From the IMG/VR virus record IMGVR_UViG_3300047509_000125, positions 2,019 to 66,018 of that record: DNA of 64,000 bases; one strand, 5' to 3'. The notes beneath the pieces are model-generated. The model saw only the letters and a list, made by a program, of their open reading frames with translations. It was not told the origin of the DNA and did not search any database. Shown in pieces: positions 29,715 through 40,161 of this stretch (its first letter is position 1; each line of letters starts with the position of its first letter). Both the position numbers and the translations under genes were made by a program. Origin of the DNA: a virus. Its lineage: Duplodnaviria > Caudoviricetes.

Positions 29715-30005
29715 ATGAAACGATTACTTTGTTTGTTCATCATCGCCCTAACGTGTTCCTTTGCCGCGGCTGATCAGTTCGGCCAGCGACAGGTCAGCGT
29801 TCATCCCCTTACTGGCACCGGCACGATTAAGCATGGGTGTCGCTACGTGTTGTTCGATCTCGTCGGATTCAGCGGTTCAATCGGGAACGTAACGTTTTCG
29901 AGCATAACCAAATTGCTCCCAATTCCGGCGCAGAGTCAGGACACACTCGGCGACATTCCTTACACCGTGACTGGTGGAACATTAAACGTCATTGAGGAAC
30001 GGTGA
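29715..30005 (+). CDS. Small protein with signal peptide
   Basis: MKRLLCLFIIALTCSFAAA; GTGA-coupled to the next gene. Confidence 0.6.
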   Translation: MKRLLCLFIIALTCSFAAADQFGQRQVSVHPLTGTGTIKHGCRYVLFDLVGFSGSIGNVTFSSITKLLPIPAQSQDTLGDIPYTVTGGTLNVIEER

Positions 30006-33000
30006 AAATATGGCGCACATGGGCGTTCCTGCTGCTGACGGCTGGCTTGCTCTATTCTGATCCGCCGCCTTTTCCACCGGCCAAACCGCTCACCTATTCT
30101 CCCGACGGGACGGTTCTCCCGACTTCGGTTAACGGGCAACCGTTAAAACTCCCGCAAGGCACCGAAGTTTTCTACTTAGGTAGCTATGTACCCATCAATC
30201 CGATTGGTGGAGGTGGCGGCGATGTTGCCAGCGAACAATTAAACTCGAGCCCAAACGCGACCGTAAACTGGAACGGCGGTAAAAAGTTCCTTCGTCAGAC
30301 AGTCGCGCTCACTCAAAGCGTTCCTGGCCATCTTCCACCGGCCAACAGTTTTGTTGCTGGCACAATCATTACTTACACCGATCCGGTTACGGCCGACACG
30401 CTGACCTACAGTGTAGCTTGGACGCCACAGGGCGCGGACACTCTCAACGGCGGGACCACTCCCTACAGCTTCTTTTTTGGCGGGGGCACGGTACAACTCG
30501 AAACCGACGGCGTAAGCGCGTGGACATCGTTACCGCGTCACCTGTCGATAAATCAGATTCAGGACACAGGAAATCCACTAATCAAAGTCGCTTTCGATGT
30601 GAGTCTGATGCCGACTGGAGTAAGTATAATTCCCGTTACGCCCAATTCCCCATTAGGCGTGTTCGATGATCCTGGCCACGATTTCGTATCTATATTTAAG
30701 ACCGCCGACAAATTTTATCGGGTAGCGATCGGTACCGGCCTCAATATCACCGGTGCCTCCCCGAACTATACGTTAAACGCGACCGCCTCAGCACCAGCCA
30801 GCATCGCTTCGTTCATGGGCACGAGCACGGTTCGTGGCATGAACAATGATGTCTATATCGCGATCCGGACCGACGGGAAACCCGGCACCGGAACGGCTGA
30901 AGATCCGTTCGACGGAAGTACAGCAGTTAAGTTCGATGCAATCATGGATGGGGTTGCAGCCGGTACTCGCGTCATTCTTCAAAAGAACACGATTTTTCTG
31001 ACTAACGGTGTGAAATGGCCGGATAACTCCAAGGGATGGACGGTTAAAGATTCAGAATATATCCAGGGTAATGGCGCTACCCTGAAACTAGCCACCTACC
31101 CAAATTCATGGGACGGCGTAACTGCCAACCAAAAAACGGCCGTAGTGGGAAACAGATATTTCGAAGCCCCGGTTAACGACGTCGTAATTGAGAATATCAC
31201 GATCGATTGTAACTGGGGGACGATCGGTCAAGCCGGAACCATCCAATCGCCTTGGACTAATAAAGCAGCGATGGCCGCATTCATCTATGGATCGAACTGG
31301 CATTACATTCGTTGCACGCACATAAATTCCTATGGCGACATAACTAGCGGCACCGAATGCTTCGCGTTAGGCGGTCAGGTTCCCGACCAGACTCATAATC
31401 CAGGCGCAGTTTGCGACACGCCATGGATTCAGGATTGCGTGGGACTCAATCCTCATGGTGGATACGTCGATGGGTTTTTTATCTTCGGAGTTGATAACAC
31501 GCACCTCGCTACGAATGGACGAATGACGGGATGTCGGACAGTCGGTGACTTTCATCCGGGTTGTTATCACTGGGCCTATGTTAAGGATCTAGAGATCGCG
31601 AACAACCTGTCCAATGGGGGTGGCGGGTGCTATACCGATACCGGAATGACGGATGGAGTCCGGGTAATCGGAAACAACCTTTACTGTAACGAACTTGGAA
31701 TAGGGATGGTTCAGGTTGACGGAGTCCCCCAGAGACGGATATGGATTGAGAATAACCGAATTCGTTATGCTTCAAACACGGTTTACGAGGGAATAGCCAT
31801 TAACGCTACAGCAGGGCAGGGCGATGATGTGATGATAAGTCACAATAAGATTGGACCTCGAACTGATGTTGAAATCCCCACTGGCGGTCAAGCTGCGATC
31901 GACATCGCAAACGGAATTACAAATGTCAAAATCATCCAGAACGAGATCAGTCGCTCTGCCGGATTCGAAATCTACGCAGGGACATCTCAGCCTAACGGTT
32001 ACTTAGTCGCTCATAATATCAAGCCGAGCGGGGCACCGGTGAGCCTGGTTAACAATATCACCAATATTCCGATTGATCCGATGACGGGAGGCGGGGGCGT
32101 GGACAATCAGTTTAATCGCAATTCATCACTGACCGGAGCACTCCGGATTACTGGCACGTATCCCGGCGACATTGACCGGGTGATATTCTATTATTTTCCA
32201 TCCAGCTACGTCATTCAAGCTGGCGACACGTTTCAGTATGAAGTTTTCAGCGAGGAAAGTAACGCGCGCTGGTATCCGAGCACTTGGATTAGGTTTACCG
32301 ACGTAACGGATACCGGGGCGAGCGTTGACCAAAACGGCGTCGCTAACTATCAGGGAGATATTCCTAACTACGGACGAGGACGATGGTATTTTCGGAAAAC
32401 AGATATGACGCCATATGTAGGTAAGACGATCCAGCGGGTTATCGTGGGTGCCAATAGTGGCGCAAGTGAGGTGTTAACCGAATACTGGCGCAACGTGCGG
32501 ATCGTGGATGTAAACGGGAAAACAGCCGCCATGTTTTACGAGGATAACGGACCCATTCCTTCAGTGCATTACGTTACCTCAATCACCAATCCGTCTGCGG
32601 TGGCCGTCCCTCCTCCTCTTTATTCTTACGACGGCACCGCAGGCGCATCCGCAACCACTGGCGGCGCGACGTTCAAGAACGGTCTTTACACCAGCGGCTC
32701 TATTTCCGCTGGCAGCACAATCGCCACCGACCCGATCTGGGCTGCGCTTGGTGACACGGTCTACGGGACGGGCGCGAGCACAGGCGCGAAGCTTTCGGGT
32801 AACACAACCGCAACCCGTAAGTTTTTGCGTCAGACCGGCAATGGGAGTGTGTCAGCCGCGCCCGCCTGGGACACGTTGGTTGCAGGTGATATACCTGATC
32901 TTAGCGCGACCTACGAGGTAGTCGGCACCACTGCCGGGCTAATCTCCGACACGGCTTACAACGCAACCACATGGGACGGTGACACGACTCATGCGCCATC

Positions 33001-38200: not shown

Positions 38201-40161
38201 TGCGAGCGAAGAACACGAACAAGCCTATCGTGTTCAATGAAGACAGCGACGGTGGCCCGGCATCGAGTCTATATCCCGGTTCAACTATTCCTAACTATCT
38301 TGCGGCAAGAGACAATGGCGCGTCGTGGGGGTTTCATCCCAATTACCTGAACGATTACATAACTGGTTTCCAAGGTCCGCCGACAAATTGGGCCAACATC
38401 AATACCAGTTCGCCAACACCGACCAGCTCGCCTAAAGCTACCTGGTTCAACCAGCTCGCCGCTGACGTAGCCCTAACCCCGACACCCACGCCAACAATCG
38501 GTCCATTCGTCAATGGCAGCTTCGAATCTGATTACACCGGTTGGCAGACACATACCGGCAATCAGAACATCAACACTATCGCCAATTACCCGGTCACGGA
38601 CGGCACTAAAGATGTCCAATTTAACGGTCAACAGCTTCCGGTAAACGGGGTTTTGTCCCAAACGTTTACGACTACGCCTACCCAGCCGCTAACCATGTGG
38701 TTCGATCTTGGCGTGTTCTCATTTAACGCCAGCAACCAAATGGGCTTGAACGTCAAAGTCGTTAGTAATAGTTCAACCCTGGTTAACCAAAATTTCACTA
38801 AGAACGGTGCGGGAAATGTCGGTGGCGTAACCGCTTGGAACACGAATCAATCGGTTAATTTCACGCCAGCCGGGGCCACTACAACGGTCACGTTCACGGA
38901 TGTATCGACCGCCACGACTAACATTGATGTCTTTCTGGATAACGTCCGCATTGGCACTCCAACCCCTACGCCTACCCCAACTCCCACTCCCACACCTACC
39001 CCGACCCCCACACCGACTCCAACGCCTACACCGACGCCAACCCCGACCCCAACACCTACGCCCACGCCAACCCCGACTCCAACGCCGGCTGTAGTCACCT
39101 CGGCCGCTACCAACATTGGCGTAACTACTGCAACTCTTAACGGCGCAGTTAATCCCGAAGGCGCCGCTACAAATTATCTTTTCAATTACGGTCTAACTAC
39201 GGGTTACGGATCGACCACGGCGACCAATAACGCCGGATCTGGAAATGCACCGCTGACTCAGAGTGTTGGTGTAACCGGGCTTTCACCAGCGACCGTCTAT
39301 CACTACCAAATTTCAGCGACCAACGGAGGCGGAACAGCGTTAGGTGCCGATGTCAGTTTCACGACTTCGCCCACTCCCACGCCGACGCCAACGCCGACCG
39401 TGCCAGCGACGCCTACCCCGACGCCCACTCCGACCCCAGCAATCCTGAATATAACGACATCAACAATCAATTTCGGCACGGTTCTCGTTAACAGCACACC
39501 GGCTGACATAAATATGGTTGTCGCCAATACCGGATCAGTTTCAGGAAACCGCACACTGACAGCGTTGTCTGCTCCGTTTTCCTTGGTTAACGGTACCAAC
39601 TACACGTTCAATGTCGGGAATACCAATGTGCCGATCCGGTTCCGGCCAACCTCGGCCAATAGCTATATGGCGACGGTAACGGTAGACAACAGTACCGCCG
39701 TAATTGAGGGCGTTGCGGTTACGCCTACGCCAACACCTACTCCAACACCCACGCCGACACCTACTCCGACACCCACGCCAACACCGACACCGACTCCCAC
39801 GCCCACGCCGACCCCTACGCCAACTCCGACCCCGACGCCGACGCCGACGCCCACACCGACCCCCACGCCAACACCCCTTCCGGCGCTAACAATCGTTATT
39901 AACGAAGCCATCACGGTTGGACCGGTGCCGCTGCCAGTGACCTTTACCACTTCAGGTGTCGGGACTCCGACTACTTGGGCGTGGACTTTCGGCGATGGCG
40001 GGACTTCAACCTCGGCTTCGACTGTGAACCATAATTACACGAACCCCGGCACTTACCCCGTTACCCTGGCGGTGACTGACGCGAATGGCACACGCGCGAC
40101 CGCCGCGGCGCAAGTGACTACGATGACCGCGCCATCGAAATCAATTATTATCGTGAAATGA
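35254..40161 (+). CDS. Giant multidomain secreted-type protein: beta-helix, Gly-rich domain, clan GH-A (GH5-like) TIM barrel, DUF642-like, FN3, ASH/Ig-like and PKD domains joined by Pro-Thr linkers (likely start TTG 35350)
   Basis: Signal peptide then YYID...[18 protein letters not shown] and IVFNED glutamate pair; [22 protein letters not shown]...HNY..PG.Y. Confidence 0.8.
38956..39087 (+). repeat. Pro-Thr coding repeat (others at about 36712-36795, 39370-39438, 39721-39876)
   Basis: ACN-CCN hexamers with varied third codon positions. Confidence 0.9.

Follow-up and report, generated by a model that had tools for sequence, protein, structure and literature searches.

Sec-type leaders on three consecutive post-capsid genes of an uncultured tailed phage

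Three leader-bearing genes behind the coat gene

The stretch of DNA analysed here (the window, 64,000 nucleotides) comprises bases 2019-66018 of IMGVR_UViG_3300047509_000125, a virus record in IMG/VR that consists of one contig of 66,018 bp and whose genes lie mostly on the + strand. Directly downstream of the coat gene, three consecutive + strand genes, P0001, P0002 and P0003, begin with leaders of the Sec/signal peptidase I type; their N-termini were present as quoted in the original prediction, at the starts 29715, 30002 and 35350. P0001 (29715..30005) encodes a 96-residue precursor in which a leader of approximately residues 1-19 (29715-29771) is followed by a beta-rich domain. P0002 (30002..35257) encodes a fibre- or tailspike-like protein of 1751 residues with a 19-residue leader (30002-30058), and P0003 (35254..40161) is a 1635-residue open reading frame (ORF) with a hydrophobic core at 35350-35409.

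The gene immediately upstream of P0001 (28407..29624, + strand) encodes a 405-residue protein that had no match by sequence in Pfam, PHROGs or PDB, and an exhaustive HMMER search revealed 142 cluster representatives. An AlphaFold2 model based on an alignment of 43 representatives (predicted local distance difference test, pLDDT, 84.4) was compared with PDB structures using Foldseek, and the best matches were the capsids of phages B2, N4, Pan3, DEV and HK97 (E 1e-10 to 1e-7), the closest folds being those of the short-tailed phages Shigella phage B2, N4, cyanopodophage Pan3 and Pseudomonas phage DEV (E 1e-10 to 3e-9). Since the model matches HK97-fold capsids, the product is assigned as the major capsid protein and the virus as a tailed phage with an HK97-type coat; the three genes thus directly follow an HK97-fold coat gene, and the earlier label "post-capsid" is correct.

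Leaders were called using our own heuristic, which considers the n-, h- and c-regions and the residues at positions -3 and -1. The heuristic passes the starts 29715, 30002 and 35350 and fails 29655 and 35257, where the n-region is over the allowed length. All three leaders have a basic n-region (MKR in P0001, MKIWR in P0002 and KLR in P0003 from start 35350), a hydrophobic core of 12-16 residues and small residues at -3/-1, and the first five mature residues of each protein are free of lysine and arginine. A search for the motif of the twin-arginine translocation (Tat) pathway found no RR pair in any of the three n-regions, nor in the longer one that P0003 would have from its upstream start. 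The background of the heuristic was estimated from 87 unrelated viral loci, in which it calls a leader on 62 of 961 ORFs with a length of 100 residues or more (6.5%), and three leaders in a row would be expected by chance ~0.02 times among the ~85 genes of a genome of this size.

Another question is whether the starts are correctly placed, as the genes mostly have no Shine-Dalgarno sequence and ribosome-binding sites cannot discriminate between the candidates. The ORF of P0001 opens with ATG 29655, and the inner ATG 29715 gives MKRLLCLFIIALTCSFAAA/DQ. A terminator-like hairpin (29663-29713) falls within the extension from 29655, and all ten homologues with complete N-termini begin at the inner MK.. 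position; on this comparison, 29715 is taken as the start. The GTG of P0002 at 30002 overlaps the P0001 stop and gives (M)KIWRTWAFLLLTAGLLYS/DPPPF. Only codons 1 and 16 are in-frame ATG, GTG or TTG codons among the first 130, the latter being part of the hydrophobic core, so the leader cannot be skipped; the use of a downstream start, a possibility that had been raised for these genes, was checked for P0002, and no start past the leader exists within those 130 codons. For P0003, the candidates are GTG 35254, ATG 35257 and ATG 35260, which overlap the P0002 stop, or TTG 35350. The hydrophobic core is translated under either start, with ATG 35257 placing it after a 32-residue basic n-region, and the next in-frame ATG is codon 81. 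Taken together, these observations support the conclusion that the three leaders are real, correctly placed and non-random.

The original prediction described both giants as fibre-like, which stands for P0002 with its fibre motifs, beta-helix, LamG domain and match to phrog_10356 and does not stand for P0003, whose architecture is that of a glycanase. In P0002, residues 1-450 had no match in Pfam, PHROGs or PDB. The first beta-helix-type domain (30809..31921, approximately residues 270-640) shows, over residues ~270-560, 44% identity across 296 residues (E 1e-64) to P0006, a fibre-like metagenomic protein of 1156 residues that is apparently leaderless. Tail-fibre motifs follow at 32864..33139 (approximately residues 955-1046); a motif at residues 981-1075 is common to seven IMG/VR contigs, and the same repeat is multiplied in P0004. 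Further along lie a second, right-handed beta-helix (33524..33886, residues 1175-1295; PF13229 with E 2.4e-8 and 3.7e-10, over the cut-off, and NosD with E 7.4e-5) and a LamG/concanavalin-like domain (34358..34816, approximately residues 1453-1605; PF13385 E 1.6e-9), and residues 1366-1622 match phrog_10356, "virion structural protein" (E 2.5e-28).

At its C-terminus, P0002 has a tip (residues 1628-1750, 34883-35251) that shares 37.6% identity (E 2e-9) with ORF56 of an archaeal virus, a Nitrosopumilaceae spindle-shaped virus (BK067788.1); the phage and the archaeal virus record therefore appear to share a putative distal domain. Nothing but this short match was found when P0002 was compared with cultured phages. 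In the window, family searches recognised no other tail-fibre or tailspike gene without a leader.

P0003 has a different composition. Its leader runs directly into a segment that we take to be the cap commonly present at the N-terminus of secreted beta-helix proteins, after which come a glycine-rich region, a GH5-like stretch, DUF642-like and Fn3-like modules and a C-terminal PKD domain (39880..40119, residues 1543-1622; PF18911 E 2e-17, PF00801 E 7.8e-12). Seven (TP)n linkers, which occur in no other protein of the genome, join the modules. The GH5-like stretch (37717..37983, residues 822-910) matches PF00150 with E 8.8e-5 at 22.6 bits, below the cut-off of 23.5; in the Atlas it falls with bacterial clusters (0.97) and with a "GH5 domain" cluster (0.96) that has PF00150 on 12% of its members, and a sequence search of PDB with this stretch was empty. 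The N-terminal 450 residues had no match in Pfam, PHROGs or PDB. All database matches of P0003 are domain-level matches to large bacterial proteins of the secreted type, and no full-length relative was found. Judged from its domain order, P0003 appears to be built like a secreted bacterial glycanase and not like a fibre.

A BLAST comparison with four complete relatives, found through the coat gene, revealed conserved genes flanking the structural region on both sides, among them those for a 657-residue protein, a 762-residue protein, a scaffold-like protein and the coat protein. Between 29655 and 45040, the window has nothing in common with these four genomes except for the LamG domain of P0002, and a search of the four for relatives of P0002 was empty. 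Other proteins stand in the slot behind the coat gene in related genomes: a leaderless 511-residue protein with a weak tail-fibre PHROG match in G001 (E 2.9e-4), leaderless proteins of 209-233 residues in L116, L117, L119 and L121 (followed in L116 by one of 857 residues) and a different leaderless ORF in L122. Searches with the slot proteins of L116 and L117 found nothing homologous in the window. Leader-bearing giants also occur there: G004 (L096) has a 1464-residue protein with the leader MKKLISLCCLCCALSAFG/AG and LamG-like repeats, to which the LamG region of P0002 is 27% identical (E 6e-10), and L130 has a 678-residue leader-bearing protein with an N-terminus nearly identical to that of the G004 protein. 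The arrangement of the window returns in L115, where the P0001 homologue is followed by a leader-bearing gene that overlaps the stop in front of it. P0002 is thus found in a late-operon slot that holds fibre-like genes in relatives (the weak match of G001 and the giants of G004 and L130), and gene content suggests that the two giants fill a variable host-recognition cassette between the coat and lysis genes. A common look of P0002, the G004 giant and a fibre of the locus L081 (a leader followed by PPFPP) was considered as possible homology and rejected in favour of analogy, as the N-terminus of P0002 gave no significant match to the G004 giant (E 0.55) or the L081 fibre (E 0.026).

P0001 shows another pattern. 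Searches of Pfam, PHROGs and PDB by sequence were empty, and a word-indexed protein search gave just two relatives, one of which has a different yet typical leader. A metagenome scan with the coat protein gave 20 loci, ten of which combined 65-72% coat identity with at least 150 bp of downstream sequence (L123, with too short a downstream sequence, was left out of the count). A P0001 homologue directly follows the coat gene in nine of these ten assessable close relatives; L125 has no homologue. In L119, a 225-residue gene (2275-2952) separates the coat gene from the P0001 homologue; N-termini similar to that of its product ("..RRGD(T/P)SP..G.VF..Y") occur after the coat gene in L124 and L133. 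The leader is present in all 11 complete members of the family, including the window protein and P0098, and consists of MK, 12-16 hydrophobic residues and a site of the A-F-A or A-L-A type; its sequence drifts freely, and the mature parts are 32-57% identical. The conservation of leaders in homologous loci, which had been proposed as a check, could therefore be confirmed for P0001 and has no counterpart in P0002 and P0003, for which full-length homologues are lacking.

The AlphaFold2 model of P0001 (the 116-residue ORF from 29655, three sequences, pLDDT 66.5) has a helix at residues 2-39 that spans the upstream extension and the leader, followed by eight strands. P0001 is thus probably a small beta-rich protein, predicted to be exported, of a family tied to the coat gene in this lineage. 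Its role as a chaperone or adaptor for P0002 was considered and lost support, as the family adjoins the coat gene whatever comes next; comparison of the loci indicates a separate conserved family, independent of the giants. Within the lineage, the leaders of the big slot proteins appear to be sporadic and that of P0001 constant.

Leader-bearing fibres in other phages

These data raise the question of whether leaders on fibre-like proteins are confined to this genome. Using the fibre motifs of P0006 and P0002, we found 87 IMG/VR loci, of which 68 had a non-edge ORF with the motif and were counted (13 without an ORF match and six with contig-edge ORFs were excluded). A leader at the first start codon was found on 13 of these 68 fibre-motif ORFs, compared with 10 of the 275 other ORFs of at least 300 residues in the same loci (Fisher p 5.7e-5), and several of the latter ten adjoin leader-bearing fibres. 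PHROG annotation of ten leader loci placed six in a structural or lysis context. In L081, terminase, portal, protease and coat genes are followed by the leader-bearing fibre and then by a head-tail adaptor; in L036, the fibre stands just before the adaptor; in L016 and L060, it comes after the portal, with an endolysin on its other side in L016; in L033, it follows the tape-measure region; and in L011, the leader protein itself has a minor-tail PHROG match. For L084, L065, L064 and L021, the PHROG matches gave no placement. The arrangement in L084 (1768-5355) mirrors the pair of giants in the window, with a proline-rich, leader-bearing fibre, a 262-residue gene and a leader-bearing 626-residue protein; in the latter, the leader is followed by ATYYIDYDSGAD (ATYYID), i.e., it runs directly into a beta-helix cap, as in P0003.

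Tailed-phage morphogenesis is, in textbook accounts, wholly cytoplasmic, and the fibres and tailspikes of the model tailed phages (P22 gp9 type, T4, lambda) are leaderless and fold in the cytoplasm. P0002 resembles them in its beta-helix and fibre-repeat domains, its late-operon position and the swapping of cassettes between relatives and differs from them in having a leader that cannot be skipped. The original prediction extended the absence of signal peptides to characterised phage fibres in general. The textbook models bear this out, but leader-bearing virion proteins are listed in the GenBank entries of two cultured Cellulophaga phages. In phi18:3 (NC_021794), the consecutive proteins gp085, gp086 and gp087 start with MKNKITIIMILMSISFGYSQ, MKKTIYILSILLLTISGVSAQ and MKHTFSIVLFFILSIGLNAQ, which are leaders by the same heuristic; all three (gp087 as "tail protein") are recorded as structural "based on experimental MS/MS proteomics analysis" (tandem mass spectrometry, MS/MS), and an endolysin lies five genes downstream. 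Eight other virion proteins of phi18:3 detected by mass spectrometry are leaderless. In phi10:1 (NC_021802), gp091-gp094, annotated as structural, structural, "pectate lyase" and "tail fiber protein", all with MS/MS notes, all have leaders, and gp095 looks similar; seven other proteins of the structural module or its neighbourhood, three of them annotated by MS/MS, are leaderless. In the two phages together, the 15 other proteins checked are leaderless by the same heuristic, and 11 of them are flagged as virion proteins, virion status being that given in the GenBank record notes.

The Cellulophaga phages resemble the window in having runs of consecutive late leader genes (three and four in number); these runs close the structural block, with the endolysin gene a short way downstream. 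They differ in that the Cellulophaga host belongs to Bacteroidota and the leaders there end in Q-type sites, and in that the Cellulophaga proteins are recorded in particles by MS/MS, whereas those of the window are known from genes alone.

In PMC6199706, the lack of signal peptides was taken as support for a phage origin of the targets of diversity-generating retroelements. Pantoea stewartii WceF (PMC7949094) is an exported, trimeric hydrolase with the right-handed beta-helix tailspike fold that targets the exopolysaccharide of its own producer; it is a cellular gene product with a Tat leader, in contrast to the window leaders, which have no twin arginine. Signal peptides were predicted for 3261 of 64,678 prophage carbohydrate-active enzymes (5%; PMC13507307), which that source treats as auxiliary metabolic genes and which are not fibre-like proteins in a host-recognition slot. 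The T4 antiholin RI is reported to be a small periplasmic phage protein with a cleavable signal peptide (PMC8385771). P0001 is like RI in being a small late protein (~100 residues) with a leader and unlike it in being predicted beta-rich and tied to the coat gene rather than to a holin. In the full-text literature searched, which largely excludes subscription journals, no description of Sec leaders on tailed-phage tail fibres or tailspikes was found.

Likely export and possible assembly at lysis

What could the leaders mean for the phage? It is likely that all three proteins are exported, as suggested by the leaders themselves, the conservation of the P0001 leader, the unavoidable leader of P0002 and a domain architecture in P0003 like that of secreted proteins. 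In the reading that we tentatively prefer, assembly would take place in two compartments: the head and tail would be built in the cytoplasm, while P0002, perhaps P0003, and P0001 would be exported through Sec, folded in the periplasm and added at lysis, a route that a sizeable minority of uncultured phages would share with the cultured Cellulophaga phages. As a whole, this scheme has, in our estimation, rather less than an even chance of being correct. The late genes P0001-P0003 would be translated with their leaders, host SecYEG would export the products, signal peptidase I would trim the leaders and the proteins would fold in the periplasm; when holin and endolysin mix the compartments, at least P0002 would dock onto the particles built in the cytoplasm. 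P0002 would then act as a glycan-binding or glycan-cutting fibre or tailspike and P0003 as a multi-domain, glycanase-like protein. We infer export, cleavage, periplasmic folding and docking at lysis, the last by analogy with the Cellulophaga phages only. The part of the scheme that concerns P0002, namely that at least this protein is a host-recognition appendage that docks on the particle at lysis, draws on its fibre content, its slot and the Cellulophaga precedent, and we regard it as nearly evenly balanced. The cysteine content is a suggestive but weak sign of periplasmic folding: mature P0002 has 16 cysteines and mature P0003 has 10, and the 1731-, 626-, 347- and 404-residue proteins of the structural region have none.

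Several observations weigh against assembly in two compartments. The leader calls come from our own heuristic and not from SignalP. P0002 and P0003 have no full-length homologues, so leader conservation is not directly comparable for them, and of the six close relatives in which the following gene can be seen, five have a leaderless protein and one a leader-bearing protein there, which indicates that the slot does not require export. No virion-docking domain was recognised in P0002, nor was any likeness to the slot proteins of relatives. P0006, which looks leaderless, has cysteines in the domain shared with P0002, and the cysteine counts per domain are odd (9, 5 and 2). BLASTP comparison of P0001-P0003 with phi18:3 gp085-087 and phi10:1 gp091-095 gave no match at E <= 1, so the Cellulophaga precedent is one of analogy only, and secreted protein that co-purified with the particles could also account for the mass spectrometry signals there. 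Dilution would, in addition, compete with any docking after lysis. Finally, a search of 185,579 species genomes for a prophage relative of the coat gene, which could have pointed to a host, found none.

A further explanation, which we consider a substantial possibility at well under an even chance, is that the proteins are exported and never reach the particle. P0002 and P0003 would then be free or envelope-associated glycan-binding or glycan-cutting proteins, P0001 a periplasmic accessory protein, and the true fibre would be located elsewhere or have escaped recognition; the infected cell would use them to remove or reshape the capsule, slime or receptor that it carries itself, and this would aid release, prevent progeny from sticking to debris or block superinfection. 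The full secreted-glycanase architecture of P0003 with no recognisable docking domain, the dissimilarity of P0002 to the slot proteins of relatives and the proximity of the genes to the lysis cassette and to other leader and lipoprotein genes all fit such a role. It also has a cellular precedent in WceF (PMC7949094) and a parallel in the 5% of prophage carbohydrate-active enzymes with signal peptides (PMC13507307). However, the motifs of P0002 are otherwise found in tail fibres of structural modules, P0002 occupies the slot of the fibre-like proteins of relatives, the family search of the window recognised no leaderless fibre or tailspike gene, and two cultured phages have leader-bearing analogues with virion status in their records.

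It is unlikely that the N-termini are uncleaved inner-membrane anchors or that the proteins fold in the cytoplasm with the N-terminus as a structural segment, in either case with no periplasmic release. If P0003 is translated from ATG 35257, its 32-residue basic n-region, which the heuristic rejects, would be possible for a signal anchor; very large beta-helix trimers are perhaps poor Sec substrates; and the apparently leaderless homologue P0006 indicates that a protein can have the shared domain and lack a leader. Nevertheless, small residues at -3/-1 follow a core that, at 12-16 residues, is shorter than expected of a membrane anchor, the A-x-A-type site is present in all 11 P0001 members, and the pattern recurs on unrelated fibre proteins far over background. 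Chance or wrong starts, with the hydrophobic stretches being untranslated or accidental, are very improbable: the starts of P0001 (29655/29715) and P0003 (35254-35260/35350) are indeed ambiguous and most genes offer no Shine-Dalgarno sequence as a guide, but the hydrophobic core lies within both proteins under either start, P0002 has no alternative start past its leader, the P0001 leader is found in 11 of 11 members, and only ~0.02 chance occurrences are expected per genome.

The kinds of proteins found here (a fibre or tailspike, a glycanase and a small beta protein) are ordinary, and the novelty lies in the leader in the host-recognition slot of a tailed phage. Its recurrence within a lineage of coat proteins with no evident tie to Bacteroidota is new, and the leader-bearing, coat-tied P0001 family is likewise new and forms a second, separate puzzle. 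If leader-bearing host-recognition proteins are indeed carried on particles, an assembly step at or after lysis, or across the envelope, would follow; such fibres could bear periplasmic features, e.g., disulfide bonds or host glycosylation, and receptor-binding proteins would be mislabelled by pipelines in which a signal peptide speaks against a place in the virion. Free action of the proteins would instead mean that the secretion of glycan-cutting enzymes ahead of lysis is common among phages, with a bearing on biofilm and capsule turnover and on superinfection exclusion. The cultured Cellulophaga phages offer a direct test.

Neighbouring genes and other features

Directly after P0003 lie genes for two membrane proteins of 231 and 79 residues (40158..41126, + strand), each with two hydrophobic segments according to the hydrophobicity table. 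Neither had a family match, and we consider them holin-like. A GIY-YIG/NUMOD3 homing endonuclease gene (41117-41803) sits among the holin-like and lysis genes. Further envelope-targeted proteins are encoded at 42580..43910 (+ strand): a leader-bearing protein of 221 residues, a protein of 92 residues and a lipoprotein of 124 residues with the lipobox LSIAGC, for all of which family searches were empty. A phrog_19005 protein and a DUF1353 protein are also encoded downstream of P0003, and the stretch as a whole may be read as a lysis and envelope cassette. As with the coat gene, no prophage relative was found for the 221-residue leader protein. A search for tRNA genes was empty, and the only hints at a host are Verrucomicrobiota names on two domain-level matches.

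Between the coat gene and P0001 lies the hairpin mentioned above, a terminator-like structure with a U-tract (29663..29713, + strand). Folding of 29625-29720 gave a free energy of -33.7 kcal/mol (z -3.66), and none of 200 shuffled sequences was as good. The arms CCGGCGUUA and UAACGCCGG are exact complements 18 nt apart. A scan for consensus promoters and terminators found no excess over shuffled sequences and missed this hairpin, possibly due to the scanner's limit of 3-8 nt on loop length. The hairpin is probably a leaky terminator that lowers the expression of P0001-P0003 relative to that of the coat protein.

The coat family has near-invariant cysteines at C5, C85, C114, C395 and C404 (44 aligned members) and a C-terminus of ..CS; these could be metal or disulfide sites in the capsid protein. 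Upstream of the coat gene are a 404-residue scaffold-like protein and the 762-residue protein present in all four complete relatives, which is the probable portal by size and position only. In a 626-residue protein of the window (20827-22707), an Ig-like stretch alone matches baseplate and fibre PHROGs. Farther upstream, 13838-19033 encodes a 1731-residue protein with no cysteine and no family match. Over its last 350 residues, it shares 47% identity with the 373-residue product of a separate gene in G004, which suggests that the protein is split or fused between relatives.

On the opposite strand, the 657-residue protein (57460-59433, - strand), kept in all four complete relatives and without a match in Pfam or PHROGs, may be a divergent large terminase. 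It is adjoined by a conserved gene for a GT2-like glycosyltransferase (59490-60404) and by a methyltransferase gene (61943-62578). An HNH endonuclease is encoded near the end of the window (62815-63306). The region also includes a GroES/Cpn10-like gene (60510-60851; Pfam E 4.2e-7), and two co-chaperonin GroES genes are present in Cellulophaga phage phi18:3 as well.

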